DNA from: a virus
Taxonomy: Duplodnaviria; Heunggongvirae; Uroviricota; Caudoviricetes
DNA length: 31,403 bases
IMG/VR virus record: IMGVR_UViG_2623620492_000013
Reading direction: 5' to 3' (one strand)
Shown: positions 724-31,403 of the stretch, in pieces
How the letters are laid out: the number at the start of each line of letters is the position of its first letter
Numbering within the stretch: position 1 is the first letter of the stretch
Made by a program: the position numbers and the translations under genes
Notes under the pieces: model-generated
Seen by the model: only the letters and a program-made list of their open reading frames with translations
The model's database searches: none
Told to the model about the DNA's origin: nothing

Positions 724-736
724 CTGACTGGCATTA

Positions 737-755
737 GGCCCTTAGGGGCCTTTTA
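737..755 (+). terminator. Hairpin plus T-run after the transposase stop
   Basis: ggccc-ttag-gggcc stem-loop followed by tttt. It may instead be part of the IS terminus. Confidence 0.35.
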
Positions 756-791
756 TTCTATGATAAACGGACTTTGTTTGAGAGTGACGCC

Positions 792-1118: not shown

Positions 1119-1372
1119 TGTCTGACTGGAATATTGCTGCAAAGCCGCAGGAAGAACGCGACAAGGTTAATGTTGACCTGGCAGCCTCCGGCGTGGCCTA
1201 CAAAGAGCGCCTGAATATGCCGGTTATCGCCGAGCAGGTAGCTCGTGAGCAACCAGAGCATCTACGAGAGTATTTCATGGATCGCGTGCGGCACTATCGC
1301 GAGCAGAGCGTTGCATTGCCTAAGGCATCTGATCCTCGCTACATTGAAATGACTGAGCAAAATGCAAAATAA
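1118..1372 (+). CDS. Hypothetical phage protein
   Basis: 84-aa ORF translationally coupled to its upstream neighbour. No motif recognised. Confidence 0.5.
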
Positions 1373-1388
1373 ATTTCAGGAGATTCAA

Positions 1389-1649
1389 ATGGAAAATAGC
1401 ATGAGCATCACAACGATTCTTGAAAGAGAAAGGGAGCTTGATGATCTTGTTAAGGTGTGCCTCGATGAGCTTGAGGTGATTGACATCCATGGACAGGTTT
1501 ACTCAATTCCTCTTTCCCACCTAACGAACGCAGAGCAGGTGGTACATTGGGTCTGGAAGATTGCTGAGAGAGGTGATTTCGCCATGGATGTTGTTCGTAA
1601 ATTTACTGAAGTTGCGTCCCATCATGTGGGGTTTGACGCTAAAAAATAA
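1389..1649 (+). CDS. Hypothetical phage protein
   Basis: ORF with AGGAG 7 nt upstream of the ATG at 1389; the alternative start at 1362 lacks an RBS. Confidence 0.5.
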   Translation: MENSMSITTILERERELDDLVKVCLDELEVIDIHGQVYSIPLSHLTNAEQVVHWVWKIAERGDFAMDVVRKFTEVASHHVGFDAKK

Positions 1650-1699
1650 ATCGCCAAGGACCGATTTAATAGCTATACACATGTTTTACATTCCGCTCG

Positions 1700-1728
1700 C
1701 ATCTTAACCAAATCTTTCTTGGTATAAT
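1700..1728 (+). promoter_or_regulatory. Candidate sigma70 promoter with extended -10 (TGgTATAAT)
   Basis: tggtataat at 1720-1728 in an AT-rich intergenic region upstream of the zinc-ribbon ORF. Confidence 0.4.
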
Positions 1729-1767
1729 GATTTTTTACAGGCGAATGACGTGTGAGGTCCGGGATTT

Positions 1768-1965
1768 ATGACTTGTGAAGTATGTAACAAACAACCCCTT
1801 GGACGAAGGGACCCGCCTCTTCCATGCATGGTCTTGCAAGGCGATAAATCCGTTAACTTCAGCCATCACGGACGCGAAGCAAACGAGCGTTATTACAAAT
1901 GCTCGGAATGCGGTCATGAGTGGATGAGAGAGACAGGAAATTGCGGCGAAGGCTGGATTCCTTAA
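1768..1965 (+). CDS. Small zinc-ribbon protein
   Basis: 65 aa with two CxxC pairs (CEVC near the N-terminus, CSEC near the C-terminus). Confidence 0.55.
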   Translation: MTCEVCNKQPLGRRDPPLPCMVLQGDKSVNFSHHGREANERYYKCSECGHEWMRETGNCGEGWIP

Positions 1966-2043
1966 CTATATATTGTCGCTATTCGCAAATTGATTTTCTC
2001 AAATCATCCCGCCATAATTAAGTCGCAGTCGGCCTGAACACCC

Positions 2044-2090
2044 GATTGTGACTTCTGCGCATTTAAGGGGACTTAAATGCGACCACAATC
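2044..2090. repeat. Nested imperfect inverted repeat
   Basis: Perfect 10-bp arms cgcatttaag / cttaaatgcg around a GGGA loop, flanked by outer arms gattgtg / cacaatc. No T-run follows. Confidence 0.6.
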
Positions 2091-2112
2091 TGAAATCCTC
2101 ACCTTGTCACAG

Positions 2113-2142
2113 ATGCAGAAATGCACCTGCGATTTTCTGCAT
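2113..2142. repeat. 9-bp inverted repeat upstream of the ninB RBS
   Basis: atgcagaaa and tttctgcat separated by 12 bp, ending about 18 nt before the RBS aaggagg. Confidence 0.55.
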
Positions 2143-2168
2143 TCTGCGGTTTCCGTTAAGGAGGCCGT

Positions 2169-2624
2169 ATGACTCTTCCAGTAGACGGCATCAAGCTCCA
2201 TCGCGGCAACTTCGCAGCCATCGGTCAGCAGATTCAGCCCTTGCTTGATGCCGGGCAATGCTTTCGCCTTCAGGTTAAGCCGTGGCGCGAGAAGCGCAGC
2301 CTGTCGCAGAACGCTCTCAGCCACATGTGGTACACGGAAATCAGCGAATGCCTCATCACCCGCGGCAAGACCTTCGCTACGCCTGAATGGGTCAAAGACG
2401 CGATGAAGCACACCTATCTCGGCTACGAAAGCAAGGACAGGGTAGACGTCGTGTCCGGAGAGGTAACCACGGTCCAATCCCTCCGCCATACGTCAGAGCT
2501 GGAAACCGGCGAGATGTACATCTTCCTGTGCAAAGTCGAAGCCTGGGCGATGAATATTGGATGCCACCTGACCATTCCGCAGAGCTGCGAGTACCAGCAG
2601 CTGCGCGATAAGCAGGAGGCCTGA
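2169..2624 (+). CDS. ninB: NinB-family recombination protein
   Basis: 151 aa with strong RBS (taaggagg). The RSLSQN...W motif resembles lambda NinB (RSLDQN...LW); sits in a nin-like region. Confidence 0.7.
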   Translation: MTLPVDGIKLHRGNFAAIGQQIQPLLDAGQCFRLQVKPWREKRSLSQNALSHMWYTEISECLITRGKTFATPEWVKDAMKHTYLGYESKDRVDVVSGEVTTVQSLRHTSELETGEMYIFLCKVEAWAMNIGCHLTIPQSCEYQQLRDKQEA

Positions 2625-2794
2625 TGTCTACTCCACTTTCCCGCGTCATCACCAACGAAATCTTCCGCGTTCCGGCGCGCCGCAAGCGTAAGCCAGCGGT
2701 TAAGCCGTCCGACATCCCGACTTTCAAGGACTACACCGCCCGCCTGGTCGATCAGAAATGGCTGCGTCTCGCAGCGAGGAGAAAATCCGCATGA
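2624..2794 (+). CDS. Small basic hypothetical protein (56 aa, absent from the ORF track)
   Basis: ATG overlaps the ninB stop (TGATG) and its stop overlaps the phosphatase start (ATGA), a typical coupled chain of small nin-region genes. Confidence 0.45.
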
Positions 2795-3459
2795 GCATGT
2801 ATCAACGCATTAATGGCGCTGACTGGCGCAATATCTTCGTTGTGGGCGATCTGCATGGGTGCTACACGCTGCTGATGAGTGAGCTCGAAAAAGCTTCGTT
2901 CGACCCGGCGCGTGATTTGCTGATCTCGGTTGGAGACCTTGTTGACCGCGGCGCGGAAAACGTCGAGTGCCTGGAGCTGATTACTATGCCGTGGTTCCGG
3001 GCTGTGCGAGGAAACCATGAGCAGATGATGATTGATGGGCTATCGGAGTATGGGAACGTCAATCACTGGTTGGCAAATGGTGGCGGCTGGTTCTTCAATC
3101 TCGACTATGACAAAGAAGTGCTGGCTAAGGCTCTGGTTCACAAAGCAGCTGAGCTGCCACTCGTCATCGAGCTGGTTACCGCTGAGCGTAAAATCGTTAT
3201 CTGCCACGCTGACTACCCGCATAACGAATATGCGTTCGATAAGCCCATCCCGAAAGATATGGTCATCTGGAATCGTGAGAGGGTTAGCGACGCACAGGAC
3301 GGCATAGTATCGACGATAGCCGGTGCTGATCTGTTTATCTTCGGCCACACCCCAGCGCGCCAGCCCCTGAAGTATGCCAACCAGATGTACATCGACACCG
3401 GCGCCGTGTTCTGCGGAAACCTCACGCTGGTAAAGGTGCAAGGCGGTGAACATGCGTAA
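2791..3459 (+). CDS. Serine/threonine protein phosphatase (lambda PPase-like metallophosphoesterase)
   Basis: Motifs GDLHG, GDLVDRG and GNHE are characteristic of calcineurin-like phosphoesterases. Start taken at the ATG at 2791. Confidence 0.9.
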
Positions 3460-4093
3460 ACCATCCCGCCGTAAGTGCAAAGTATGCGGGGAATACTTCG
3501 TGCCGAAATTCCACGATATCCGGATCCGCTGGTGCAGCCCGGAGCACGGCGCAATCCTCGCGATGGAAGAACGTCAAAAGGAGAAGGTGAAAGCCGCTGC
3601 TAAGCGCATTAAGGAGCAGAAGGAGGCAGAGAAGGCCGGGCGCAAACGCCGCAAGGAGAGGCTGGCAGAGCTACGCCCAGCAGGTTACTACAAAGCGCAG
3701 GCTCAGCAGGCATTCAACGCCTACATCCGTGCGCGCGATGCTGATTTGCCATGCATCAGCTGCGGAGAGACCAACCCGCCAGATCTGCATGGCGGCCAAT
3801 GGGACTGCGGCCACTTCAAAACGGTCGGCGCTAACCCTGAACTGCGCTTTGAAGAGCGCAATGCCCATAAGCAGTGCAAATCCTGTAATGCCGGAGCGGG
3901 CAAATATACCGCCAAAGAGGCGACGGTAGCGCAGCAATACGAAGCTGGTCTGGTCGCTCGTTACGGGCAGGAGTACGTGGACTGGCTCAACGGCCCCCAC
4001 GAAATGACCAACTACCGCCGTGAAGACTTCATTCGGATCCGCGATGAATACCGCGCCAAGCTCAAAGCACTGAAACAGTGGGAGGCCGCATGA
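3452..4093 (+). CDS. ninG: NinG/Rap-family recombination protein
   Basis: N-terminal CKVC...WCSPEHG and central PCISCG...WDCGH...HKQCKSCN cysteine clusters match the lambda NinG pattern. Confidence 0.85.
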
Positions 4094-4206
4094 ACCAAGC
4101 CGATTTCCTCCGTTACCAGGCAGAAAGCGTTAAGCGCGCCAGCATGCCGCCAGTAGCAAAGCACAGCCAGACCAAAACCAACCAGCCTCAGAAGGAAGCC
4201 GCATAA
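4090..4206 (+). CDS. Small hypothetical protein (38 aa, absent from the ORF track)
   Basis: ATGA overlap with the ninG stop and ATAATG overlap with the Q start. Weak evidence. Confidence 0.3.
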   Translation: MNQADFLRYQAESVKRASMPPVAKHSQTKTNQPQKEAA

Positions 4207-4706
4207 TGAAACTGGAATTAACCAACGACCAGCATCAATGGGTAGACCAGTGGCTCCAGTTGTGGGGCGCATGGTGCCAGACCGGCAAGATTGATAAAGC
4301 GATGATCAACATGATTGCCAGATTCATGGCTACCGTCGAGCCCCAGCAAGCATCACGACCGGTATGTAGTGATGATGACGGGATGCTCATTGATGCTGTC
4401 ATTCGTCACTATCTGAAGAATGTGGATGAAAATGCCTGGCGGGTTGTCTTCGCCTACTACGTTTGTAACTCCAGCGAGATCCGAATTGCATCATGGCAGC
4501 ATGCAGTAAGTAAGCCTCGCCTGATGAAGACGCGTGGCGGAAATCAGTATAAACACCCAAGCATCTCGACAATCCGTAGAGAGGTGAAGCAAATCATCAA
4601 TGCCTCACTGTTCTGTTTGTACCAACCGCTGCAAAATGCGTTTAACAATCGCGAAAATGTGAGGAAAATTGCAAAAAATCCTCATAACGCGCTTGCTTTT
4701 CAATGA
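4206..4706 (+). CDS. Late-gene antitermination protein Q
   Basis: Position between the nin genes and the lysis cassette, followed by tandem intrinsic terminators. N-terminal QW/W-rich region resembles Q-family proteins as recalled. Confidence 0.7.
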   Translation: MKLELTNDQHQWVDQWLQLWGAWCQTGKIDKAMINMIARFMATVEPQQASRPVCSDDDGMLIDAVIRHYLKNVDENAWRVVFAYYVCNSSEIRIASWQHAVSKPRLMKTRGGNQYKHPSISTIRREVKQIINASLFCLYQPLQNAFNNRENVRKIAKNPHNALAFQ

Positions 4707-4767
4707 ACAAATGAGCAGAATAAATCGTATATGTTGCCGTTGTTGTGTGTGACATGAATGAATGCCA

Positions 4768-4796
4768 AGCCTCGCCATCGTGCGGGGCTTTTTTAT
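4768..4796 (+). terminator. Intrinsic terminator in the late leader (tR'-like)
   Basis: gcctcgc-catcgt-gcggggc hairpin followed by a 7-T run. Confidence 0.55.
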
Positions 4797-4872
4797 TTGC
4801 GGTACGCCGCACACAGAACCCACTACCTGGGACCCTTCGGCCAGAGAGCCGACATTGCCTTACCCTCATCTT

Positions 4873-4897
4873 CCTGGCTTGTCGCCAGGTTTTTTAT
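4873..4897 (+). terminator. Second intrinsic terminator in the late leader
   Basis: cctggc-ttgtc-gccagg hairpin followed by a T-run. Confidence 0.55.
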
Positions 4898-4995
4898 TCC
4901 AGGCCGCAGACAATCAATTCCAGATGCCACGTAGCTAACGTGTCTGACGGCCTTTCCCCTACTACCACACAGCACCCCGGAACCGGAGGTGTGGA

Positions 4996-5316
4996 ATGCA
5001 ACGTATGAACCCAACAGATGGACACAATCTGCCTTACTGGTGGTCAACTCTTCTGGGGTTATTTTCCGTTCTCAGTTTACAGGACTACGTCTTTATTCTC
5101 GGCGCGCTGGTCTCTGCATACTTCACGATTAAGACCTATTACGCGAAACGGAAAGAAGAGCGTGAACGGCTGGAAGAAGAAAAGAAACGTACACAGTTAC
5201 TGGCTAAATACCTTGCTGAGGTAAGCGAGAAACCCCACTCCGAACGTCCGGCATCTGCCGAGGTTGTAACGGAGGCAATGCGGAGAATGTCCAGTGGCGA
5301 ACTTGAAGCTGAGTAA
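4996..5316 (+). CDS. Holin
   Basis: 106 aa with two hydrophobic segments and a highly charged C-terminus; GGAGG RBS; first gene of the lysis cassette. Confidence 0.8.
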   Translation: MQRMNPTDGHNLPYWWSTLLGLFSVLSLQDYVFILGALVSAYFTIKTYYAKRKEERERLEEEKKRTQLLAKYLAEVSEKPHSERPASAEVVTEAMRRMSSGELEAE

Positions 5317-5824
5317 GAAGAGTGGCGCGGCCGGGATCGTTTGTTCAGTGGCTACAATTATCGCAATCGTGATGAATGCGGGCCATGTCAGGACTAACGA
5401 GCGCGGGCTGGAGTTAATCGGCAACGCTGAATCTTGCCGACGTGATCCGTATGTGTGCCCGGCAGGTGTGCTTACTGACGGAATGGGTAATACGCATGGC
5501 GTAAAGCTCGGAACCGTTAAGTCTGACCAGCAGATCGCAGCCGAGTGGGAGCGCAACATCCTTGATGCTGAGTTCTGTGTTAACCGCTACGGGAATGGCA
5601 GAAAGCTATCTGACAATACTTTCTCGGCAGCTGTATCGGTAACGTTTCGTGCTGGCTGCGGAAACATGCGCACCTCCACGATGTTCTCTCTTCTCAGAAG
5701 TGGGGATATCACGGCGGCATGCAACCAGTTCCCTCGCTGGGTATGGGGGGGAGGCAAGGTTCTGCCTGGTCTGGTTACTCGTGCCGGAAAAGAAGAAGCG
5801 CTCTGCCTGGACGGTGTGAAATGA
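5294..5824 (+). CDS. SAR endolysin (phage lysozyme, P21 R-like)
   Basis: N-terminal Gly/Ala-rich signal-anchor-release segment ([16 protein letters not shown]) and ELIGNAE...DPY.CPAGV...GNTHG lysozyme motifs. GTG start at 5294 overlaps the holin end. Confidence 0.85.
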
Positions 5825-6282
5825 GCCGGTTAACAGCAATCATCTGTGCTTTCGTTATATGTCTGCTGGTCTCCATGGACTGGGCGATTAACCATTACCG
5901 CGAAAACGCCATCACCTACAAAGAACAGCGCGATAAAGCCACTGAGAAACTCAGCCTGGCTAACGCCACCATAAAAGACATGCAGACCCGCCAGCGAGAG
6001 GTGGCTGCACTGGATGCCAAATACACCGGAGAACTGGCTGATGCGAAAGAAACCATTGAGCGTCTGCATAGCGATGTCATTGCTGGCCGTAAGCGGCTGC
6101 AGCTCAACGCAAACTGTCCCGCGAACGGAACGGCCGGCGCCAGCAGCATGGGCGATGCTTCCGGCCCCCGACTTACTGACTCCGCTGAACGGGATTATTT
6201 CACCCTCAGAGAGCGAATCGTCACAGTGACGAAGCAGGTCGGCTATCTGCAGGACTACATCAAAGAGCAATGTATTGAGTGA
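5821..6282 (+). CDS. Rz: i-spanin Rz
   Basis: N-terminal transmembrane segment then coiled-coil region; follows the endolysin; contains an embedded out-of-frame lipoprotein ORF. Confidence 0.85.
6044..6229 (+). CDS. Rz1: o-spanin Rz1 (lipoprotein embedded in Rz, +1 frame)
   Basis: [20 protein letters not shown] has a lipobox; Pro-rich mature part; lies wholly inside Rz. Confidence 0.8.
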
Positions 6283-6345
6283 TTTGGCTTTCAATAATTT
6301 GGGAATGTGCAATATATTAACCACCAAAACTATATGGAGGTTAAT

Positions 6346-7029
6346 ATGTCTGCTTGGGAGTGTCCTTTTTGCGGTAGGTTGGCTGTTTATGATTCAATGC
6401 AGAAAAAACGTGATAGCTTCTCAGTTTCTGGGGATACCAAGTTTGGAGTCCTCGTTTTCGAGTCTTTCGTAAACATCTGCCCAAACCCAGAATGCAAAGA
6501 ATTTACATACATTACAACGATGTCTACAGGAAAATATCAGGCCGGTTACTATATACCTGATGATCTCCTAGAGACGTGGGTTAACAGGCCTAACGGAATT
6601 TTTAAACAGTTTCCTGATTATGTGCCGAAGCCGATTTTAGATGACTATAAAGAGGCGGTCTTAATCAAAAACCTTTCACCTAAAGCTTCTGCAACTTTGT
6701 CACGCAGGTGTCTTCAAGGAATGATTAGGAGCGTCTGGAATGTTAAGCCCGCGAGACTTGTTGACGAAATAAAAGCCATCGAGGGGCAGATTGAATCGAA
6801 TGTTTGGAAAGCAATCGATGCCGTAAGGAATATTGGCAACATTGGCGCTCATATGGAAAATGATATCAATATCATTGTTGATGTCGATCCAGACGAAGCT
6901 GAGATGCTGATAGGCCTCCTCGAGCTTCTGATTCAAGAGTGGTATGTTGAAAAGCATGAAAGGCAACTACGAATTGACGCCATTACCGCTTTAGCGGCTG
7001 AGAAAAAAGCATTAAAACAAACAAAATAA
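6346..7029 (+). CDS. Zinc-ribbon plus DUF4145-like domain protein (candidate defence/abortive-infection moron)
   Basis: Strong RBS (GGAGG) before ATG 6346. N-terminal CPFC...CPNPEC zinc ribbon. C-terminal VRNIGNIGAHMEND...EAEMLIGLLELLIQEWY matches the DUF4145 pattern as recalled. Gene is AT-rich relative to its neighbours and has its own terminator. Confidence 0.6.
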   Translation: MSAWECPFCGRLAVYDSMQKKRDSFSVSGDTKFGVLVFESFVNICPNPECKEFTYITTMSTGKYQAGYYIPDDLLETWVNRPNGIFKQFPDYVPKPILDDYKEAVLIKNLSPKASATLSRRCLQGMIRSVWNVKPARLVDEIKAIEGQIESNVWKAIDAVRNIGNIGAHMENDINIIVDVDPDEAEMLIGLLELLIQEWYVEKHERQLRIDAITALAAEKKALKQTK

Positions 7030-7052
7030 ACCGCCTACGGGCGGTTTTTTGT
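7028..7052 (+). terminator. Intrinsic terminator
   Basis: ccgcc-tacg-ggcgg hairpin followed by tttttt. Confidence 0.65.
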
Positions 7053-7116
7053 TGCCATCACCATGGGGTAGCCCATCGTAATGGCAATATCCACATAAGC
7101 GGATAGAGAGGCCTCA

Positions 7117-7320
7117 ATGTCCGACACCTACCAAATCACTATCACCACTACATCGAAAGATACGTTCACTGGCACGATGAATCGAAGCCAGCCTGAAATC
7201 GTTAATGGGTTCGTGGCATTGGCTACCGACACGGGTGAATGGCGTTACTTTCGGCCGGACAGCGTGGAGCAGTTCCACTTTGTACCAGTGTTAGAAGAAA
7301 AAGCATCAGAGGACGCTTAG
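7117..7320 (+). CDS. Hypothetical small protein (67 aa)
   Basis: Stand-alone ORF in the AT-rich moron island. Confidence 0.45.
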   Translation: MSDTYQITITTTSKDTFTGTMNRSQPEIVNGFVALATDTGEWRYFRPDSVEQFHFVPVLEEKASEDA

Positions 7321-7343
7321 TTGCCGCCCCCTGATGGGATTTG

Positions 7344-7517
7344 TTACTGATCTACCATTACACTATGAATAGTAAGGCCGTTCTTATCTTTGAAAACCAC
7401 CGTTAAAGGCAATTCTTTGTCTTGTTCTGGGTTCCCTGTTTTGAGAGAGAGGACATCAATTTTCAATTCATAATTCCCAGTACTGATAAGCATTTTTGCG
7501 AAGTCTTCGAGTGTCAT
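7344..7517 (-). CDS. Hypothetical small protein (57 aa)
   Basis: Reverse-strand ORF with AGGAGG RBS before the ATG at 7517 (MTLEDF...). Convergent with the 67-aa gene and divergent from terS. Confidence 0.5.
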   Translation of the reverse strand: MTLEDFAKMLISTGNYELKIDVLSLKTGNPEQDKELPLTVVFKDKNGLTIHSVMVDQ

Positions 7518-7575
7518 TATTCCTCCTGTTAAAACCATATTATCGGGAAGTGGCACATAACCTTTAAGGAAATAT

Positions 7576-8013
7576 ATGGCGACCAAACAAAAAACTGGCC
7601 GCCCTTCTGATTATTTACCAGAGGTGGCTGCTGACATCTGCTCACTGCTTGCCGATGGGGAAAGCCTGCGCAAAGTTTGTGATCGACCAGGGATGCCTAA
7701 CAAGGCGACGGTGTTCCGCTGGCTGGCGCAGCATGCAGAGTTTCGCGACCAATACGCGAAAGCCACTGAGACACGCGCTGATGCGATTTTCGAAGATATG
7801 TTCGATATTGCTGACGGTGTGAATGAAGAGGCTGCCGCAGTAGCTAAAGCACGTCTTCGCATTGACACGCGAAAATGGGCCCTGGCCCGCATGAACCCGA
7901 AGAAGTACGGCGACAAAGTCAGCCAGGAAATCGACCACAAATCATCTGACGGAACCATGACCCCAAAGCCAACAATCATCCAGCTACTACCTGTTGAGCC
8001 AAAGCATGAGTAA
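7576..8013 (+). CDS. Terminase small subunit
   Basis: 145 aa with N-terminal HTH-like region, immediately upstream of and overlapping terL. Confidence 0.8.
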   Translation: MATKQKTGRPSDYLPEVAADICSLLADGESLRKVCDRPGMPNKATVFRWLAQHAEFRDQYAKATETRADAIFEDMFDIADGVNEEAAAVAKARLRIDTRKWALARMNPKKYGDKVSQEIDHKSSDGTMTPKPTIIQLLPVEPKHE

Positions 8014-9253
8014 CGCCGTTCAACTGCCGATCCCCGCCAAGCTTGCACCACTGTTCACCGCCGTGAATAAGCGTTACCGGTGCTCTCACGGCGGACGCGG
8101 TAGCGCCAAGACGCGCACATTTGCGCTGATGACTGCAGTTAAGGCGTATCAGTCGATGATGAACGGTGAAAGCGGCGTAGTGCTCTGTGCGCGTGAATTC
8201 ATGAACTCGCTGGAAGAGTCGAGTATGCAGGAGGTGAAACAGGCGATCCTGTCTGTACCGTGGCTGGCTTCCAACTTTGATATCGGCGAGAAGTACATCC
8301 GCACCATCGACAAGAGCGTTAACTACGTGTTCTGCGGTCTGCGGCATAACCTCGACAGCATCAAGTCGAAAGCGCGCATCCTGCTGTGCTGGGTTGATGA
8401 AGCGGAATCAGTCAGCGAAATTGCCTGGCAGAAGCTGAGCCCGACCGTTCGTGAAGAGGGGTCAGAGATTTGGGTGACGTGGAACCCGGAGCGAGACGGT
8501 AGCGCCACGGATAAGCGTTTCCGCAAAGAGGCAGGCGACGACTGCATCACCGTTGAAATGAACTATACGGATAACCCGTGGTTCCCTGATGTGCTGGAAG
8601 GCGAGCGACAGAACGATCAGCGCCGCCTCGACCCGGCAACATACGCATGGGTGTGGGAAGGGGCTTATCTCGAAAACTCCGATAAGCAGGTACTGGCCGG
8701 GAAATACCGGATTGCTGAGTTCTCGGACCAACTATGGAAAGAGGCCGAACGTCTGTTCTTCGGTGCTGACTTCGGTTTCGCCAAAGACCCTAACACGTTG
8801 GTGCGTTCGTTCATCCTGCATAACCGGCTGTACATCGAATACGAGGCATACGGTCAGCAAACTGAGCTCGACCACATGCCAAAGCTGTACGACACGATTC
8901 CAGGTGCGCGTGACTGGCCCATTAAAGCCGACTCCGCTCGACCCGAGACGATCAGCTATCTAAAGCGGCAGGGCTTCAACATCTCAGCCGCTGAGAAATG
9001 GCAAGGAAGCGTTGAGGACGGGATCGCACACCTTCGCGGATTCGACGAAATCATTATCCATCCGCGCTGCAAGAATGTGGCGCGAGAGGCCCGCATGTGG
9101 TCGTACAAAACAGACCGCATTACTGGCGAGGTGCTGCCGAAACTGGCCGACGGCTATGAACACTGCTGGGACGGTATCCGCTACAGCCTAGACGGGCACA
9201 TTAAGCGTAAAGGCCAGATGGCCGGGATGATGATCCCAAAACGGCTGCGATAA
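8006..9253 (+). CDS. Terminase large subunit
   Basis: Walker A-like GGRGSAKT near the N-terminus and a C-terminal nuclease-like region; about 416 aa. Confidence 0.9.
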   Translation: MSNAVQLPIPAKLAPLFTAVNKRYRCSHGGRGSAKTRTFALMTAVKAYQSMMNGESGVVLCAREFMNSLEESSMQEVKQAILSVPWLASNFDIGEKYIRTIDKSVNYVFCGLRHNLDSIKSKARILLCWVDEAESVSEIAWQKLSPTVREEGSEIWVTWNPERDGSATDKRFRKEAGDDCITVEMNYTDNPWFPDVLEGERQNDQRRLDPATYAWVWEGAYLENSDKQVLAGKYRIAEFSDQLWKEAERLFFGADFGFAKDPNTLVRSFILHNRLYIEYEAYGQQTELDHMPKLYDTIPGARDWPIKADSARPETISYLKRQGFNISAAEKWQGSVEDGIAHLRGFDEIIIHPRCKNVAREARMWSYKTDRITGEVLPKLADGYEHCWDGIRYSLDGHIKRKGQMAGMMIPKRLR

Positions 9254-9312
9254 TTTGTACGAATACCAAGCGAAGTCATAATTAAACTCCCGCCATATGA
9301 TTCGGAGGTTTT

Positions 9313-9546
9313 ATGCATAGCTTTGAGCACTTGGTTGCAGAAATAAGAGAAGAGTTAAGGCTTAGAGGGCTTGAGCATTCATCGCTAATTTTTACTAAGC
9401 TTGCTCAGCAATACGCCCCTTACTATCAATCATTCGAACCTGAAAGAAAAGAGGCGTTACTGCTAAAGCTTAAGGCGCTTGAGAGAAGCGTGGGGCTACA
9501 GAAACCATTTGATTGGGAATCAGCCCTCTCAACGAAAAAAGAATAG
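9313..9546 (+). CDS. Hypothetical small protein (77 aa, moron)
   Basis: Own RBS (GGAGG) and own terminator; lies between terL and portal. Confidence 0.45.
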   Translation: MHSFEHLVAEIREELRLRGLEHSSLIFTKLAQQYAPYYQSFEPERKEALLLKLKALERSVGLQKPFDWESALSTKKE

Positions 9547-9568
9547 GTCGCTCAGGCGGCCTTTTTTA
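9546..9568 (+). terminator. Intrinsic terminator
   Basis: ggtcgc-tcag-gcggcc hairpin followed by a T-run. Confidence 0.5.
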
Positions 9569-9596
9569 TTGCCATAAATCCACCACCGGACAATCC

Positions 9597-10946
9597 ATGA
9601 ATGACAAATTAACTCTCGCCGTCAACCATGCGTTGAACGATGCGCGGATGGCTCGCGCCCGTATGGGGCTGATGGCGCCTACAATGGGGCTGGACAACAA
9701 GCGCCACTCTGCATGGTGCGAGTATGGATTCCCTGAGCAGGTAACCTACGAAAACCTTTATGCCCTGTACCGACGCGGTGGTATTGCCCACGGCGCAGTA
9801 GAGAAACTGGTGGGCAAGTGCTGGCAGACTAACCCGGAAATCATCGAGGGTGATCAGGCAGACAAAAAGCGCAAAGAAACCGCCTGGGAGAAAAAGGCCA
9901 AACAGGTATTCACCAACCGATTCTGGCGCTCATTCTCTGAGGCCGATCGCCGTCGTCTGGTGGGCCGTTATGCTGGCATCCTTCTGCACGTCCGCGATGA
10001 AAAAGACTGGAACCTTCCGGTAACCAAAGGGCGAGGTCTTCAGAAAATATCGGTGGCGTGGGCAGGATCGCTTACGGTGAGCGAGTGGGACACTGGCCTG
10101 AACTCGAAGACGTACGGCCAGCCTCAGATGTGGCAGTACGCCGAACGCTTGCCGAATGGTTCAAGTCGCCGCGTCAATATCCACCCCGATCGCGTTTTCA
10201 TCCTTGGTGATTACTCAGACGATGCTATTGGCTTCCTTGAGCCAGCTTATAACGCCTTTGTAAGCCTGGAGAAGGTAGAGGGTGGATCCGGCGAGTCATT
10301 CCTGAAGAACGCCGCGCGCCAGCTTAATGTCAACTTTGAGAAGGAAATCGACTTCAACAATCTTGCGTCACTTTATGGCGTGAGCATTGACGAGTTGCAG
10401 GATAAGTTTAACGAAGTTGCCGGGGAAATGAACCGTGGCAACGATGTTTTGATGACAACCCAAGGGGCCACGGTCACACCGCTGGTGACTGCTGTAGCTG
10501 ATCCTTCAGCGACCTATAACGTCAACCTGCAAACGGCTGCCGCCGGTGTTGATATCCCGACGCGCATTCTGGTTGGTAATCAGCAGGCCGAGCGCTCCAG
10601 CACCGAAGACCAGAAATACTTTAATGCTCGTTGTCAGTCGCGACGCGTAGACCTCTCTTTCGAAATAGAGGACTTCTGCGACAAGCTTATCGATCTACAA
10701 ATCGTAGACTCAGTCAGTCAGAAGGCTGTTATCTGGGATGACCTTAACGAACAGACCGGTACTGAGAAGCTCACTAACGCCAAGACCATGGGCGAAATTA
10801 ACCAGACCATGCAGGGCAGCGGCGAAGAGCCAGCGTTCAGCCGTGAAGAGATTCGTACAGCTGCGGGTTATGACAATGACGACGAAGAGCCGTTAGGAGA
10901 AGAGGATGGCGACGAACAAGACGAAGCCACCAATTCTACCGCGTAA
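9597..10946 (+). CDS. Portal protein
   Basis: About 450 aa between terL and the head-morphogenesis gene, with an acidic C-terminal tail. Confidence 0.8.
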   Translation: MNDKLTLAVNHALNDARMARARMGLMAPTMGLDNKRHSAWCEYGFPEQVTYENLYALYRRGGIAHGAVEKLVGKCWQTNPEIIEGDQADKKRKETAWEKKAKQVFTNRFWRSFSEADRRRLVGRYAGILLHVRDEKDWNLPVTKGRGLQKISVAWAGSLTVSEWDTGLNSKTYGQPQMWQYAERLPNGSSRRVNIHPDRVFILGDYSDDAIGFLEPAYNAFVSLEKVEGGSGESFLKNAARQLNVNFEKEIDFNNLASLYGVSIDELQDKFNEVAGEMNRGNDVLMTTQGATVTPLVTAVADPSATYNVNLQTAAAGVDIPTRILVGNQQAERSSTEDQKYFNARCQSRRVDLSFEIEDFCDKLIDLQIVDSVSQKAVIWDDLNEQTGTEKLTNAKTMGEINQTMQGSGEEPAFSREEIRTAAGYDNDDEEPLGEEDGDEQDEATNSTA

Positions 10947-25044: not shown

Positions 25045-27021
25045 ATGGCTACGACACCTACCAACCTGTCAGTACCGAGCGAGTCCCCCCGCGATCTGAA
25101 ATTTAACGCAGGGAAAATTGATGAATTTGTGACATCGCTGGCACTTCAGTACATTGATCGCTTTGGCAATGCTCATTACACCATCGAAGGCCTGCGCTGG
25201 ATGGCGCAGCAGGCTATTTCCCAGTATGGGTGGGTTCCGATCGGAACATTCCAGGATGGTGCAACATTAACTCTGCCTAACCAAATCCTGAAAGACACCA
25301 CCGACGGTGAATACTATCGCTGGGACGGTTCATTTTTGCCATCAGGGAAGGTTGTGCCAAATGGTTCTACGCCAGGATCAACAGGTGGGGTTGGTGTAGG
25401 TGCATGGATAAGTGTTGGTGATTCGGCATTGCGCTCAATGCTTGCTTCTGAGCAAGGAGTTTCCATGGTTGGCGGCATTGCCATGGAGCTCGACTCTCAG
25501 GCCGATTTGGCAACAAACACAACTGTTCAGGGACGGCTGGTGGCAGTAAAGAACACTGTCGGTAGTTACAATAAATACTCCATAATTCCAAACTCTGGTG
25601 TGCTTGGCGATGGCGATGTAATCATCGACAGGGTGGATGGATTGCAGGCAGAGCTTCAGATTGAAGGGGTTCTGGATGTACGGGCTTTTGCAAAGTCTGG
25701 TAGGACAGACCAACAAATAATTCAGGCGGCATTAGATTACGCTGGATCTAAATCAGGTCATTGGGTTGTTGGCTTGACGGCCAAAGATAAAACCGGAACA
25801 CCATGGAGATTCAGCACACTTAACGTACCTGACAGCACTGTTTTTCAGGGGCATGGTGGCGCTCTTAAGCTAAATGACAATGTCTGTGTCGATGCTTCAG
25901 TTAGCTATTACTTGCTGCATAACATAAACGGCAATGATGTATGGCTGGACGGGTTATATATCGATGGCAATATGAGCAATAACTCCTTGTTCACCGTTGC
26001 TGATCTTGTAACCCTCATCGGAGAAGGGTCAAAAATCACCAATTGCACCCTTATGAATGCCCCCGACTCTGGTCTAATGTTCTCAGGTGTAAAGAATGGT
26101 CTAGCGTCTGCAAACACCATCGGCAATGGCAGAGATGTTGCTATCTATGCAAATGCAAGCGCAGACGGCAGCGCAAGGAACAATGTGTTATCTGACAATG
26201 TTCTGTACGGATTCCCGGCAGGAGGAATAGGATTTAAACGTTATTTTGCTGATTGTGTAGCCAGCGGGAACGCAATTTATCTCTGTGGAAACGGCGTGAC
26301 ATTTGAGGACTTTACTGTTGAGACCGAAGGTAAATTCCCCAAAAGGATTACGCTGTCTGGTACTTTTATGCGAGACATCGGCTTTCCACACCGCGCCACT
26401 GCTAACGTAGCAGAGCGAGGAATTAGCATTCAGCGTGCCTCTGATATCAGCATCACTGGTCTTCAGACAGTTAACGTTTCTGGCAATATATTATACATTG
26501 GAAATGGCACAGATATCTGCGTTGATAACGCCATGCTTAGAGGTTATGTTGCAAGTCCACAAAGCAACGGAAATAACGGAGTGCTAGTCGTTAATGCCCA
26601 AGGAGGGCACCTGAGTAATGTGAATGTTACCGCAGTGGCAAGCAGGGCAGGATATTTCCAGACCGTTAATGGCATGTCCGTTCGTGGCGGAAGATGGGTC
26701 AGTTCAGGGACTCAGTCTGGCATCAGGGTAGATGCTACCGCTCAATTTTCAATATTTAATCCTGACTATATTTCTGGTGGATCTGGAGCTGACGAAGAGT
26801 GGTTTGAAGGAGCAACAGGGATATCGAACGGATACATCCGGGCTAATGCAACAGGCCCAGGCAGATACGGAATAAGAGAGCTTTCTGCTGGGCAGGGCAC
26901 TAACCCAAATACAAGGCTTATCCCCAGATTTATTGGAGAGAAATGCGTTACCTTGTCAGATAGCGCAATCTGGATGGCAAAAGGTATGTCTAACTCTGAT
27001 TGGGTTAAGTTATCTAACTGA
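25045..27021 (+). CDS. Tail spike protein with right-handed beta-helix domain (putative polysaccharide depolymerase)
   Basis: 658 aa. The N-terminal ~110 aa look like a conserved tail-attachment module. The rest has Gly/Asn/Val-rich repeats (GNGRDVAIYANASADGSARNNVLSDNVLYG) typical of pectate-lyase-like beta-helices, and is more AT-rich than the N-terminus. Confidence 0.75.
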   Translation: MATTPTNLSVPSESPRDLKFNAGKIDEFVTSLALQYIDRFGNAHYTIEGLRWMAQQAISQYGWVPIGTFQDGATLTLPNQILKDTTDGEYYRWDGSFLPSGKVVPNGSTPGSTGGVGVGAWISVGDSALRSMLASEQGVSMVGGIAMELDSQADLATNTTVQGRLVAVKNTVGSYNKYSIIPNSGVLGDGDVIIDRVDGLQAELQIEGVLDVRAFAKSGRTDQQIIQAALDYAGSKSGHWVVGLTAKDKTGTPWRFSTLNVPDSTVFQGHGGALKLNDNVCVDASVSYYLLHNINGNDVWLDGLYIDGNMSNNSLFTVADLVTLIGEGSKITNCTLMNAPDSGLMFSGVKNGLASANTIGNGRDVAIYANASADGSARNNVLSDNVLYGFPAGGIGFKRYFADCVASGNAIYLCGNGVTFEDFTVETEGKFPKRITLSGTFMRDIGFPHRATANVAERGISIQRASDISITGLQTVNVSGNILYIGNGTDICVDNAMLRGYVASPQSNGNNGVLVVNAQGGHLSNVNVTAVASRAGYFQTVNGMSVRGGRWVSSGTQSGIRVDATAQFSIFNPDYISGGSGADEEWFEGATGISNGYIRANATGPGRYGIRELSAGQGTNPNTRLIPRFIGEKCVTLSDSAIWMAKGMSNSDWVKLSN

Positions 27022-28255
27022 AGTCAGGCCGCTGATGCGGCCTTTTCTCTGATAAAAACTGATTTATTAACTGCATAGTGTAAATAAGCATTAATACTTG
27101 AAAAACGAAAAGTACTCTCTTGCCTGAGCCATATGCTGAAGGCGAGAACATAATCATCATCACTGACGCACACGCCAGGAGAATGGTGAAACAACTGTAA
27201 AATGCATCATTTTTACACCTGGCATTAAAAACTGCGAGGCATATCATTGAACTAATTGTCAGTAGAGTCACTGCGTGAGATATGTAAACAGTAGTTCCAG
27301 CCCAATTACTTCCTGATAGATAATTAGAGTTTACCATTCCTTTGAATATATTCGCCCCAAGGAGAAAAGATAAGAACATTATTAATTTTACGGCTACAAT
27401 CGCAGCCGAAATTGATGGCAGGACTTTAAAATCTTTTCTTTTCACATAGAGTAACAACAAAGTAAGCATAGCGATATTGATTAGTACGTTGCCAGAAGAT
27501 GATACGTGACTGCTTAAGACATCCACACCTATTGATAGTTTTTGAAAGATGCCATAGCTAACGTAATCTGGAAGCCAGTTTTTTGACTCACTAAAATATC
27601 TTAACTTATTACCGGGAGCAGAAAAAAGAATAATGGCGCAAGCAATAGTTGTAACGAACATTGCGGCTATGATTGGAGTTATCCTTTTGAGATAGATAGC
27701 TCTGCATGCTAGAAATATCAAGAAGCAGATAGATATCTGTTCGTTGAACCCAAAGTACATAGCAGGTAAAACAGAGAGTGACTTAAGTATAATATTTAAT
27801 GATTTCTCGTTAAGTACTGCATAAACAGACAGTAGGCAAAGAGTTGCTGGCATTAGATAGTTATATGACCCTGCGATCCACCATGATGCATCCGCATTAA
27901 CTTCAGGTTCTATTAAGAAAAACATAAATAAAGAAACTGTGAAAGGAATCATCGCTCCTTGCTTTTCTCGAAGAGTTATCTTACTTATAATAAAAGATAT
28001 CAAAATAACACATGCTGGTATGAAAGTTTTCCAAAAGTATTCATAACGTATTGTATAGACCATGAGAGCATCTATAGTTAATCTCCCACTCCATTTTATA
28101 TATCTGTCATATATAACATCATATACATTAGAGTTTAAAAGCAAGCGTGAGAAATTTAAATCATCTCCTGAGTGACGCAAGGATAAACCAGAAAAAAGAA
28201 ATGCAATAATAGCGATAATAAGCATGGCGGCAGTGACTTTTATGGCCACTATCAT
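27014..28255 (-). CDS. Polytopic inner-membrane protein (putative serotype-specific O-antigen glucosyltransferase, GtrC-like)
   Basis: About 413 aa, many predicted transmembrane helices, very AT-rich, last gene of an operon that begins gtrA-gtrB. Start taken at ATG 28255 (TAAAATG junction); 28282 is the alternative. Confidence 0.6.
   Translation of the reverse strand: MIVAIKVTAAMLIIAIIAFLFSGLSLRHSGDDLNFSRLLLNSNVYDVIYDRYIKWSGRLTIDALMVYTIRYEYFWKTFIPACVILISFIISKITLREKQGAMIPFTVSLFMFFLIEPEVNADASWWIAGSYNYLMPATLCLLSVYAVLNEKSLNIILKSLSVLPAMYFGFNEQISICFLIFLACRAIYLKRITPIIAAMFVTTIACAIILFSAPGNKLRYFSESKNWLPDYVSYGIFQKLSIGVDVLSSHVSSSGNVLINIAMLTLLLLYVKRKDFKVLPSISAAIVAVKLIMFLSFLLGANIFKGMVNSNYLSGSNWAGTTVYISHAVTLLTISSMICLAVFNARCKNDAFYSCFTILLACASVMMIMFSPSAYGSGKRVLFVFQVLMLIYTMQLINQFLSEKRPHQRPDFS
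27026..27047. terminator. Hairpin between the convergent tail spike and gtr genes
   Basis: aggccgc-tgat-gcggcct palindrome. It overlaps the last codons of the reverse-strand membrane protein gene. Confidence 0.45.
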
Positions 28256-28256
28256 T

Positions 28257-28721
28257 TTATTTGCATTGGTAATGGATTTCATAATTATGGAGTCCGTCGT
28301 TAATCAATATAGCAATATTGCCAGTGAATTTTTTAACCTTTTTGTTTCTTACTTGAGAGTTAAACCCAGAGCGATCATAAAGCAATGGTTTTCCAAAAGC
28401 TCGACTTACATCACTTCTTCTGGTCATTGACTTGGGTATGCGCAACCATTTATCTCCGCCTATGCCAGCATAGATATTAACACTATAAAGTGTTTGCAAA
28501 TTGTAGTTTTTTACTGCTGCCCAACCATTAACTACAAGTCTGCCGTCCTCAACCCGGCATCTATCTATATGATATATAATTCCTGAACTTGTTTTAGCAT
28601 TGTCAAATTTAAATGTCGAAACGTCTGCTTTGTTAATATAAAAATAAAAGCCAGCAGGCAACATAATAGATGTTACAAACAATCCGACAAGTAATGTTTT
28701 TACAGGTAGTGAGACCTTCAT
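28257..28721 (-). CDS. Membrane-anchored hypothetical protein in the gtr operon
   Basis: 154 aa with one N-terminal transmembrane segment and a soluble domain. Coupled to gtrB upstream (ATGA) and the membrane protein downstream. Confidence 0.55.
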
Positions 28722-29635
28722 CCTTTCCTCTTCAAAATATATCTAGGACGGCTCTTTACTTCGGTGTAAATTCTTCCGATGTACTCACCAAGCACCCCGA
28801 TACCAATCAATTGGACTCCACCAAGGAAAAGGATAGAAACAAGAAGTGACGGGTAGCCCCGCACTGCGTTACCAAAAGCAAGGGTATCAACTATCATCCA
28901 TGAGCCATAGAGGAACGCCACGCCTGCAACCAGAAGGCCGATGTAAGTCCACATGCGAAGCGGGAAAGTAGAGAAACTCGTGATACCCTCAAGTGCCAGG
29001 TTCCACAACTTCCAGCCGTTAAATTTCGTACTTCCTGCGACGCGTTCTGCGCGGGCATATTCAACGACATCTGTACGGCCGCCAACCCAGCTCAATACGC
29101 CCTTCATGAACAGGTTGCGCTCTGGCATGAGCTTAATGTTTTCCACCACCTCGCGGGACATAAGGCGGAAGTCACCAACGTTTTCTTCAATCTTCGGGTT
29201 GCTGATTTTGTTGTGCAGCTTATAGAACCATTCAGCGGTCTTGCGCTTCAGTCTGCCATCTGTAGAGCGATCAGAGCGTTTAGCGAGAACCATATCAGCA
29301 CCGGCCTGCCATTTCTCGATAAGGTGAGGAATGACTTCGATAGGGTCCTGCAAGTCTACGTCAATCGGGATAATTGCTTCACCGGTCGCGTGGTCAAGGC
29401 CGGCGAACAGGGCTGGTTCTTTCCCAAAGTTACGAGTAAATGACAATGGAACAACAAGCGTATCGGCAACAGCAAGCGCGTTAATAATTGATTCTGTCGC
29501 GTCTTTGCTGCCGTCATTGATGAATACTATCTCGACTTCATGCTGCTGAAGGCCTTCAAATTCCCGAACCGTTTTATAAAAAATCGGTATCGCGTCTTCT
29601 TCGTTGAAGACGGGAACGACCAGAGAAATTTTCAT
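28718..29635 (-). CDS. gtrB: Bactoprenol glucosyltransferase GtrB (GT2 family)
   Basis: 305 aa with the N-terminal glycosyltransferase-2 fold motif VVPVFNEE...INDGSKD and two C-terminal transmembrane helices; close match to GtrB as recalled from Shigella and Salmonella serotype-converting phages. Confidence 0.9.
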
Positions 29636-29994
29636 TTCGCATCCCTAAAGACAATAAACTTAGAATAGAAAAAGCCACATACAAGACTAATGGCGGAGAA
29701 CGCCACCAGTGTGACGATTGGCGGTAAGCCACACCTGTCAGCAGCCCAACCTACAGCAGCACTCAGCGTTCCCATAAACCCAACGTAAAGCATGTAACGC
29801 AGCGTGGAAGTGGATGCTTTAAAAGTGAAGCGTGCGTTAGCGTAGAAACTAAAGCTGACGGCTACCACGAAACCTGCAAAGTTAGCCAATGCCTGACTTG
29901 TGGATAGGCCATACACGCAAACACCAAACACGACCCAGTGAATGAGTGTGTTCAGTACGCCAATCGATGTGTACTTAGCAAAAAGTTTTAACAT
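29632..29994 (-). CDS. gtrA: Bactoprenol-linked glucose translocase GtrA
   Basis: 120-aa four-helix membrane protein; [20 protein letters not shown]...FIVFRDAK matches GtrA closely. Confidence 0.9.
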
Positions 29995-30070
29995 TAGAAA
30001 AATCAGTCAATTCTGAGAAGGCAGAAGTTTAGCACCAACAAACAACTTGATCGACTATCAGAATAAGATG

Positions 30071-30090
30071 TACTGTATATGTGTACAGTA
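30071..30090 (+). promoter_or_regulatory. LexA (SOS) box
   Basis: TACTGTATATGTGTACAGTA is a near-perfect match to the enterobacterial LexA consensus CTGT-N8-ACAG with AT-rich spacer, 19 nt upstream of the ATG at 30110. Confidence 0.8.
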
Positions 30091-30109
30091 TTTATTTTTG
30101 GGTGACTAT

Positions 30110-30349
30110 ATGCCGCGTCGTTCAGATATCGTGATCGCCTTCAGAGCCTCTATTGTGCATGAAAGGTCAGGCCGCAGGATTGTGAAAACTGCTGATTTTG
30201 TTCAGGAACTACTAAAGGTCAACTGGGACCTAAGTATGGAAGAGGCGAATCAGTGGATAGATAGGTACACAACCTGCTTCAAAGACATCACTCCTGACCA
30301 CGGAGAGAACAAGACGTGGTTCATGTACAACCCGAATGGAGGGCTTTGA
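30110..30349 (+). CDS. Hypothetical 79-aa protein, first gene of the LexA-box operon
   Basis: ATG at 30110 directly downstream of the LexA box; the longer reading frame from 30047 would include the box. No similarity recognised to DinI or other known small SOS proteins. Confidence 0.5.
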   Translation: MPRRSDIVIAFRASIVHERSGRRIVKTADFVQELLKVNWDLSMEEANQWIDRYTTCFKDITPDHGENKTWFMYNPNGGL

Positions 30350-30350
30350 T

Positions 30351-30734
30351 ATGGCATTTGCATCCCCGGCTAAGGACTATGTGGAGCGCGGCATCTCTTT
30401 AGATGCTGAGTTGATTAGCCATCCATCGGCGACTTACTATGTCAGGTCTGATGTGGCTATTTTGCGTGCCGGCATTAAGCAAGGCGCGCTGCTTGTCGTG
30501 GACTCAGCAGTAAATCCATGTGATGGCTCGATCGTTCTCTGTTCCATCGATGGCCAGTTTGTCCTGAGGTATTACCGTATGTTCCCATGCTTGCATCTGG
30601 AGAACATGGAGACAGGTCGGAAGGAAAGGGCGCGCGGACTCGACGACGGAAGTGCAATCGATGTTTTCGGCGTGGTGACATACATCATTAACAATGCGCG
30701 CACCGGTGAATTCGACGACAACCCGGTTATTTAA
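30351..30734 (+). CDS. UmuD'-like protein (pre-truncated UmuD homologue, HumD-like)
   Basis: Aligns by eye with E. coli UmuD from Gly25 onward (ASPAKDYVE..., HPSATY, LLVVDSA, DVFGVV). GGAGG RBS 8 nt before ATG 30351; the alternative start is 30336. The Ser and Lys positions of the catalytic dyad appear substituted in my manual alignment. Confidence 0.7.
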   Translation: MAFASPAKDYVERGISLDAELISHPSATYYVRSDVAILRAGIKQGALLVVDSAVNPCDGSIVLCSIDGQFVLRYYRMFPCLHLENMETGRKERARGLDDGSAIDVFGVVTYIINNARTGEFDDNPVI

Positions 30735-31403
30735 TCAGACGGGCTCGATTAACTCCGGGCCCTGATTCTTCACATTACCAACAGCGCGCGACACTGCGTG
30801 CCAGATAAATGCATCTGCTGGCACCGAACCGTCGGAAACAATCTCCTCTGCTTCTTTCCCGCCCACATCCTGCCGCATCCATTCGCGTGCTGCTTCCGGT
30901 GACAGAACGAGTTGCCTGCGGTCGTGAATATCGACCAGTCCTTTATCGGCAGCCGCCGTGACTATCATAAAGCCTTCCGCTTCATCATCACGCTCAAACG
31001 GCGTACTGCCTATCGCCGCCATGAATATCGGCTTACCGTCCGCCCGATGAATGAAGTACGGCTGCTTCTTTTCGCCTTGCTTCTTCCATTCGAACCAGCC
31101 ATCAGCAAAGACTATCGCCCGGCCATGTTGCCAGAGCGGTTTGAACATCCGACTGGTGGCCGCAGTTTCCACACGTGCGTTTATCAGAGGCGGCTTATCC
31201 CACCATCCTGGAGCATAGCCCCAGTAAACCGGATCGAGGTGTAGTTGTTCATCTCGTTCGCTCAGCAGCAAAACTTTAGTGCCTGGCGCCACGTTGTACC
31301 GGCCAATGGGTTCCGGGTCGAACGGAATGTCACACTCGGCCTCTTCAGCGATTAACGCCAGATAATCTTCACGGGTCATTGATTGAGAGAAACGTCCGCA
31401 CAT
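30735..31403 (-). CDS. yedK: SOS-response-associated peptidase (SRAP), YedK-like host gene
   Basis: 222 aa starting MCGRF (the Cys2 nucleophile is the SRAP hallmark); the start codon is the last three bases of the window. Confidence 0.8.
   Translation of the reverse strand: MCGRFSQSMTREDYLALIAEEAECDIPFDPEPIGRYNVAPGTKVLLLSERDEQLHLDPVYWGYAPGWWDKPPLINARVETAATSRMFKPLWQHGRAIVFADGWFEWKKQGEKKQPYFIHRADGKPIFMAAIGSTPFERDDEAEGFMIVTAAADKGLVDIHDRRQLVLSPEAAREWMRQDVGGKEAEEIVSDGSVPADAFIWHAVSRAVGNVKNQGPELIEPV

Follow-up and report, generated by a model that had tools for sequence, protein, structure and literature searches.

A four-gene prophage gtr operon with a putative accessory subunit for its GT-C glycosyltransferase

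A gtr serotype-conversion locus was analysed in the IMG/VR virus record IMGVR_UViG_2623620492_000013 (Caudoviricetes), a stretch of 31,403 nucleotides (nt) that is referred to as a whole as the window. According to the listing of open reading frames (ORFs), four minus-strand ORFs follow one another in the order gtrA, gtrB, a small ORF of 154 amino acids (aa) and an ORF for a polytopic GT-C-type transferase (Table 1). On balance, the locus is probably a functional prophage operon for O-antigen glucosylation in which the 154-aa protein serves as an accessory subunit of the GT-C enzyme. This reading rests on the gene structure, homology, conserved adjacency, co-divergence and fold of the pair formed by the two distal genes.

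The two distal genes behind gtrA and gtrB

GtrA matched PF04138 (E 1e-14) and, over its full length, phrog_2224 ('GtrA-like O-antigen conversion', E 1e-67), and GtrB matched PF00535 (E 3e-29) and phrog_34335 (E 2.5e-178). The locus holds both the GtrA and the GtrB component (GT2 with a C-terminal membrane anchor) of a Gtr system, and the canonical status given to the two genes in a preliminary description of the window is borne out by these matches. That description had also placed two distal genes after gtrB instead of one GtrC gene, coupled the whole operon by overlapping start and stop codons and located it next to the tail spike, all of which held: both ORFs were found on the minus strand, consecutive genes overlap by 4, 4 and 26 nt (gtrA/gtrB, gtrB/small gene and small gene/GT-C gene, respectively), and the tail-spike gene, convergent with the operon, overlaps the GT-C stop by 8 nt. 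Its claim of strong AT-richness applies to the small gene and the GT-C gene (GC fractions of 0.35 and 0.36, respectively) and fails for gtrA (0.47) and gtrB (0.49). Phage structural genes lie at ~0.52-0.57, and the step from 0.49 to 0.35 falls exactly at the gtrB/small-gene junction.

The DNA of gtrA and gtrB is ~77-84% identical to classical gtr operons, that of gtrB being ~80% identical to yfdH/gtrB in 173 E. coli genomes and in the Shigella phages SfI, SfII, SfIV and SfV, and every DNA match to other gtr loci ends at window positions ~28723-28770, the end of gtrB. The contig encoding the nearest relative of the GT-C protein (L003; protein P0003, 46% identity) carries the same four genes with the same overlaps, and amino acid identities between window and contig reach 95% for GtrB and 81% for GtrA, but drop to 47-48% for the small and 46% for the GT-C protein. 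Since GtrA and GtrB are conserved in this comparison whereas the two distal proteins are divergent, and since both the GC step and the end of the DNA matches fall at the end of gtrB, the small gene, together with the GT-C gene, belongs to a variable cassette behind conserved gtrAB.

The 154-aa product had been correctly described as a single-pass membrane protein, with one N-terminal transmembrane (TM) helix at approximately residues 5-29. Its ATG overlaps the gtrB stop (ATGA) and is preceded by GAGGAAAGG. Databases label the protein hypothetical; it had no family match in Pfam, NCBIfam or PHROG, no match by tblastn against 50,697 phage genomes, and a match only to itself in a word-indexed protein search. 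An exhaustive HMMER search of 1.8 billion representative proteins returned 115 homologues at E<=1e-3, approximately 70 of which are single-TM proteins of 130-170 aa built in the same way, from a TM helix and the domain. The motifs ID.C, GWA, R.DVS and YD.SGF are conserved, as is a C-terminal Cys. The homologue in L003, encoded at the same position, is 48% identical (E 7e-49), and comparison of the two genes gave rates of 0.49 for nonsynonymous (dN) and 1.9 for synonymous (dS) substitution (dN/dS ~0.25, with dS near saturation). With 115 homologues and this ratio, the small ORF is, on comparative grounds, a real gene under constraint and not a chance ORF.

The 422-aa distal protein passed the gathering threshold of PF19528 (51.0 bits versus 27), its residues 18-414 being aligned to model positions 10-341 of 442. 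This family (DUF6056, for which the newer name GT_STM0557_N was taken from a precomputed table) includes the GtrC of Salmonella phage epsilon34, with which the 422-aa protein aligns over residues 60-228. Its GT-C relatives, 404-452 aa in length, can be aligned over their full length to the 422-aa ORF by itself and have 16 invariant residues in common, including DD at residues 40-41 just after the first TM helix. The structural model has a GT-C fold at a predicted local distance difference test score (pLDDT) of 66, the confidence being only moderate because the model was built from an alignment of 6 sequences. The variable last component of the locus is, as in Gtr systems, a polytopic GT-C-fold transferase. 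A PDB sequence search with the GT-C profile gave no match, and a word-indexed protein search with the GT-C protein gave 3-6 matches. A GtrC of the acyltransferase-3 type (O-acetylating, OafA-like) was considered and rejected, as neither distal protein had a Pfam match to the Acyl_transf_3 domain at E<=0.1.

The polytopic nature of this protein agrees with the preliminary description; the ~413 aa given there correspond to an internal ATG at 28255, which is also the NCBI call (P0002). The homologue in L003 has no Met at the equivalent of this position, the upstream MKSI..ANK start is common to both proteins, and the N-A-N residues line up with the usual MNAN N-terminus of the GT-C family; for these reasons the 422-aa start is favoured by the sequence comparison.

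Pairing of the small gene with the GT-C gene

In GTDB species-representative genomes, 15 loci were found with an alignment of the sister group (a search with the alignment of the window and L003 pair gave no loci), and in 13 of these the small gene lies directly upstream of the GT-C gene. The 13 loci include those of Edaphovirga, Klebsiella, Chimaeribacter, Erwinia, Enterobacter, Pantoea, Franconibacter, Photobacterium, Marinomonas, Phytohalomonas and Luteimonas, plus a metagenome-assembled genome (MAG) of Lysobacteraceae; of the remaining two, one ends at a contig edge and one, a Clostridia locus (L030), is without the small gene. The same adjacency was present in six of six IMG/VR viral contigs. 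Neighbourhoods of small-protein homologues, the window's own excluded, had a DUF6056-type GT-C gene immediately downstream in all seven informative cases (two further contigs, which end right after the small gene, are outside this set), and no free-standing single-domain homologue away from a GT-C gene was found among the informative loci. The adjacency also occurs in non-phage polysaccharide clusters and in a plasmid-like element. The layout, called atypical in the preliminary description, is so relative to published gtr operons; it is not an oddity of one prophage, since it recurs in nature. By these surveys the four-gene architecture is widespread across bacteria and phages, though the allele of the window is rare: it was present in approximately ten contigs of a large collection, and the distal module was found in none of 5,426 complete E. 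coli genomes, even at distant-blastn sensitivity.

A Firmicute-like polysaccharide cluster (L011) has the order small gene, GT-C gene, gtrB, gtrA, and the pair therefore stays together under operon rearrangement. Two other loci (L018 and L023) carry small gene and GT-C gene twice in tandem, with one gtrAB preceding the tandem in L023. The order in L011, the tandem pairs and the ending of DNA similarity at gtrB together link the small gene with the GT-C gene and not with gtrB. At nearly every locus the GT-C gene starts at an ATG within the closing codons of the small ORF, where the shared bases encode both Y-E-C-K-stop and M-N-A-N. Pairwise identities of the small proteins and of the GT-C proteins correlate (r 0.57, a value reached in 0 of 5000 permutations).

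Several individual loci deserve description. The tandem pairs were found in Chimaeribacter arupi and an Enterobacter MAG (L018, positions 811-5122; L023, positions 1804-5140); as the pairs differ from each other (~26-34% identity), the arrangement suggests two specificities in one operon. In one IMG/VR contig (L036, positions 2320-4769), a 69-aa remnant of gtrB and an additional gene for a small protein lie just upstream of an intact small/GT-C pair, which looks like the scar of a cassette exchange. Another locus (L042, positions 1-7480) has gtrA-gtrB-small-GT-C amid genes for a ParE/ribbon-helix-helix (RHH) toxin-antitoxin, a resolvase, ParA and a replication protein, and is a plasmid-like or mobile element, not a prophage. 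A chromosomal region by fliDST-amyA-yedD (L005, positions 3718-10453) contains a four-gene gtr operon, followed by an EpsG-family (polymerase-like) gene and, within 5 kb, a second gtrA-gtrB.

Fold, proposed role and alternative explanations

The AlphaFold2 (AF2) model of the small protein (pLDDT 93; 41 homologues in the alignment) consists of a helix at residues 5-29 followed by an eight-strand immunoglobulin (Ig)-like beta-sandwich. Cys55 and the C-terminal Cys153 covary, both being present in 30 homologues, neither in 11 and a single one in none, which fits a disulfide in an oxidising (periplasmic) compartment. The beta-sandwich was scored as lying outside the cytoplasm, as carbohydrate- or cell-wall-binding modules do, and would face the periplasm. 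HMMER placed 2-6 copies of the same domain in large extracytoplasmic Glucosaminidase, YkuD, Amidase_2, M23, AlgX-type and KxYKxGKxW proteins, and two C-terminal copies on polytopic DUF6311 proteins. No similarity was detected by hhalign between the GT-C family and the DUF6311 fusion protein, so that DUF6311 is not shown to be a GT-C enzyme, and a PDB sequence search with the DUF6311 protein gave no match. The small-family profile also matched residues 217-301 of EfAmi1 (E 4e-4), an E. faecium prophage endolysin whose unclassified C-terminal domain, absent from the crystal, has been proposed as a new carbohydrate-binding module (CBM; PMC10167349); with the domain absent from the 8C4D crystal, its structure is unsolved.

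In the proposed mechanism, GtrB would make undecaprenyl-phosphate-glucose, GtrA would flip it to the periplasmic face, and the 422-aa DUF6056-type GT-C enzyme would transfer the sugar to O-antigen. The 154-aa protein would be a dedicated partner of this enzyme, anchored in the inner membrane by its helix and exposing a disulfide-stabilised Ig-like beta-sandwich in the periplasm, where it would most likely bind or position the polysaccharide acceptor, stabilise the enzyme, or both. It may thereby supply in trans the CBM that larger GT-C enzymes carry as a C-terminal fusion, and the two proteins together would form a specificity-determining cassette that recombines behind conserved gtrAB. We infer that they form a physical complex, that the small protein binds glycan in the periplasm and that it is required for activity; the sugar added and its linkage are likewise inferred. 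An acceptor-side role is preferred because the small protein varies like the GT-C protein while the donor-side proteins stay conserved, and because the domain occupies the positions of wall-binding modules in hydrolases. In ORF12 (GT136), a GT-C enzyme, a fused C-terminal CBM binds the O-polysaccharide acceptor, and acceptor-binding CBMs in EmbC and AftD are cited in the same paper (PMC11127046). A review poses the question of whether acceptor recognition by smaller GT-C enzymes depends on further proteins (PMC8035078).

We advance only tentatively the more far-reaching version of this proposal, namely that the small protein and the DUF6056-type GT-C protein constitute an obligate two-subunit glycosyltransferase, that the sandwich represents a new CBM family, common to endolysins and further wall enzymes, and selects the O-antigen acceptor, and that the whole is a widespread four-component Gtr system. 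Several points count against the proposed mechanism. The DUF6056 enzymes of Oenococcus phage phi9805, Enterococcus phage VEsP-1 and the Clostridia locus L030 have no small partner and are equally small, and a partner is therefore no general requirement of small GT-C enzymes. Comparison of the small family with epsilon34 GtrC by hhalign gave no similarity, its C-terminal extension included, and the extension therefore cannot be shown to be the small-protein domain. The match to EfAmi1 is weak (23 bits), glycan binding by that domain is itself a proposal, and the GT-C model is of moderate confidence only. Co-divergence of the two proteins could, finally, be explained by co-inheritance alone.

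An unlikely alternative, but the one that fares best, is that the small protein, as a subunit that binds no glycan, stabilises the GT-C enzyme or aids its assembly, or hands over the lipid-linked donor; specificity would then not depend on it, although the enzyme would still require it. An analogy for such a stabiliser is PIG-X/Pbn1, the single-pass partner on which the GT-C enzyme glycosylphosphatidylinositol (GPI) mannosyltransferase I depends for stability. Against this explanation, the donor undecaprenyl-phosphate-glucose is presumably constant, whereas the soluble domain diverges as much as the GT-C protein (25-47% identity) next to conserved GtrA and GtrB, as would be expected of contact with a variable acceptor, and the domain is found at cell-wall-binding-module positions in hydrolases and an endolysin.

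It is improbable that the small protein works independently of the glycosyltransferase, as a lysogenic-conversion or superinfection-exclusion factor, or as a modulator of another envelope enzyme, carried in the same cassette. Unrelated small membrane proteins are frequent in prophage moron regions, and both the missing Pfam, NCBIfam and PHROG matches and the existence of DUF6056 enzymes lacking a partner would agree with such a function; against these stand the location next to this GT-C subfamily at all informative loci, non-phage clusters and the plasmid-like element included, the overlap of the two genes, the duplication of the pair as a unit and the failure to find any free-standing single-domain homologue away from a GT-C gene.

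Hardly any credence is given to a single GtrC gene broken by a frameshift, or to a small ORF left as the remnant of a displaced gtrC: the 26-nt overlap of two ORFs in different frames and the mosaic nature of gtr cassettes (L036, with its gtrB remnant and extra small gene) would suit such an origin, but the comparative data already refute it, the 422-aa ORF alone spanning the whole DUF6056/GT_STM0557_N model at the length of its relatives, the small protein (one TM helix plus beta-sandwich) being unlike any GtrC N-terminus, the two-ORF layout and frame relation being kept in more than 25 loci with proteins merely 25-47% identical, and none of the 115 homologues being a fused form. As the large protein is a full-length GtrC with a GT-C fold, nothing has been split; of the split and the two-component GtrC between which the preliminary description had wavered, the former falls and the latter is supported by the comparative evidence (adjacency, co-divergence and joint duplication).

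The surrounding locus and comparison with known systems

Table 1. Features of the gtr locus and its tail-spike neighbour (positions in the window)
Feature	Position	Strand	Description
gtrA	29632-29994	-	120 aa; small polytopic GtrA-family protein, proposed undecaprenyl-phosphate-glucose flippase
gtrB	28718-29635	-	305 aa; GT2 bactoprenol glucosyltransferase; 3' end is the boundary of the conserved cassette part
Small accessory gene (putative)	28257-28721	-	154 aa; TM helix plus beta-sandwich of ~105 aa
GtrC (GT-C) gene	27014-28282	-	422 aa, polytopic, DUF6056/GT_STM0557_N; alternative start 28255 gives 413 aa
Tail-spike gene	25045-27021	+	PF18668 Tail_spike_N (E 2e-16); PF13229 beta-helix; many tail fiber/tail spike PHROGs
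GC-rich hairpin plus T-run	27026-27043	+	AGGCCGC-TGAT-GCGGCCT then TTTCTCTGAT; terminator-like

The E. coli prophage is a siphovirus with kinship to Enterobacter phage CobraSix, and an identical locus is present in E. coli GCA_001637635.1, where its neighbours are an SOS-response associated peptidase (SRAP) gene, yciB/ispA, ompW and trpA. The GC-rich hairpin, read as the terminator of the tail-spike gene, falls within the final GT-C codons; translation of the opposite strand across it yields the GT-C tail RPHQRPDFS, which is missing in the L003 homologue.

Upstream of gtrA, positions 30071-30090 form an exact LexA-box-type palindrome, TACTGTATATGTGTACAGTA (CTG-N10-CAG; 0.05 expected by chance), at a distance of 77-96 nt from the gtrA ATG; on its other side, ~20 nt away, is the ATG at 30110 of divergent plus-strand genes. 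A possible SOS-controlled divergent promoter region beside the gtr operon merits attention. One further LexA-box-like site (27815-27834), which has a single mismatch and falls within the GT-C coding region, is probably due to chance in AT-rich sequence. Two plus-strand genes (30047-30734) diverge from gtrA, the first encoding a phrog_3893 protein (function unknown in PHROG) whose Pfam/PHROG match starts from residue 22, and the second a 132-aa Peptidase_S24 (UmuD-like) protein with no umuC adjoining. Enterobacter phage vB_Ecl_MII_001 (L032) has a 'UmuD' gene at the same position beside gtrA, and in L008 umuD-umuC is found there. The S24 gene abuts, stop against stop and with no spacer, a full-length SRAP (YedK-like) gene on the minus strand (30735-31403), which probably belongs to the prophage or island end, since contig L001 places it between the gtr region and host yciB/ispA. 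Salmonella gtr operons that phase-vary via Dam/OxyR have four GATC sites upstream; with a single GATC in the region upstream of gtrA (29995-30110), the window locus probably lacks phase variation of this type.

No description of a fourth gtr gene was found in a Salmonella gtr survey, an E. coli O-antigen review or the Hf4s and epsilon34 papers, nor in DUF6056 or STM0557 literature searches. The small/GT-C pair thus seems to be undescribed, an unrecognised component of a well-studied system rather than a new principle. In Shigella, Salmonella and E. coli, O-antigen serotype diversity, resistance to phages and escape from vaccines are driven by gtr operons, which are taught and annotated as three-gene systems with specificity set by GtrC alone. 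Given a conserved fourth component in one large GtrC subfamily, 'gtrABC' alone may not suffice for glycoengineering or heterologous expression of such systems, and genome-based serotype prediction should take the pair as one unit. With two small genes and a separable soluble domain, the pair also offers a tractable system in which to study how its polysaccharide acceptor is found by a minimal GT-C enzyme, the question posed in PMC8035078; if true, the two-subunit reading would answer, for one family, how minimal GT-C enzymes recognise polymer substrates. The unclassified 'cell-wall-binding' domain of the endolysin is now linked to a far wider domain family.

In every respect compared, the locus is a Gtr O-antigen modification system, except that it does not have exactly three genes with a single GtrC as specificity determinant: a conserved fourth gene stands between gtrB and the GT-C gene. 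Classical gtrABC operons (Shigella SfI, SfII, SfIV, SfV and SfX; Salmonella P22 and epsilon34; E. coli CPS-53 yfdGHI) resemble it in gene order, in their site between the tail-spike gene and the prophage end, and in having a variable, AT-rich cassette for specificity behind a conserved gtrAB. Their cassette is a single GtrC gene (for example 551 aa in epsilon34 and 485 aa in Enterobacter phages, the gtrAB of these phages being nearly identical to that of the window), whereas that of the window consists of two genes, the extra one being without a described family. The GtrC proteins of STM0557 and epsilon34 belong to the same Pfam family (PF19528) as the 422-aa protein, but that of epsilon34 is ~130 aa longer, continues past the membrane domain in a C-terminal extension and lacks a small gene upstream; the chain of the window protein ends right after its last helix.

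GacJ of S. pyogenes, a small membrane protein that assists the GtrB-type enzyme GacI (PMC8035078), is a precedent for Gtr-like pathways having a small membrane protein as fourth component. It has three TM helices and acts on a cytoplasmic lipid-sugar synthase, whereas the small protein of the window combines a single TM helix with a beta-sandwich, and its gene keeps to the GT-C gene even when gtrB is elsewhere. A GacJ-like activator of the GtrB-type synthase was accordingly rejected as a candidate role, in view of the single helix with its soluble domain and the linkage to the GT-C gene instead of gtrB. In Citrobacter ORF12 (GT136) and mycobacterial EmbC and AftD, the CBM is the C-terminal part of the same chain; in the window the putative module has a chain and an N-terminal anchor of its own and is encoded by the upstream gene, and the likeness is drawn without sequence homology between the modules. 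EfAmi1 (PDB 8C4D sequence) and the wall enzymes share the domain family itself, by profile and HMMER matches, but there it is joined, often several times over, to hydrolases that are soluble or secreted, whereas the protein of the window carries a single copy on a membrane anchor and is paired with a transferase.

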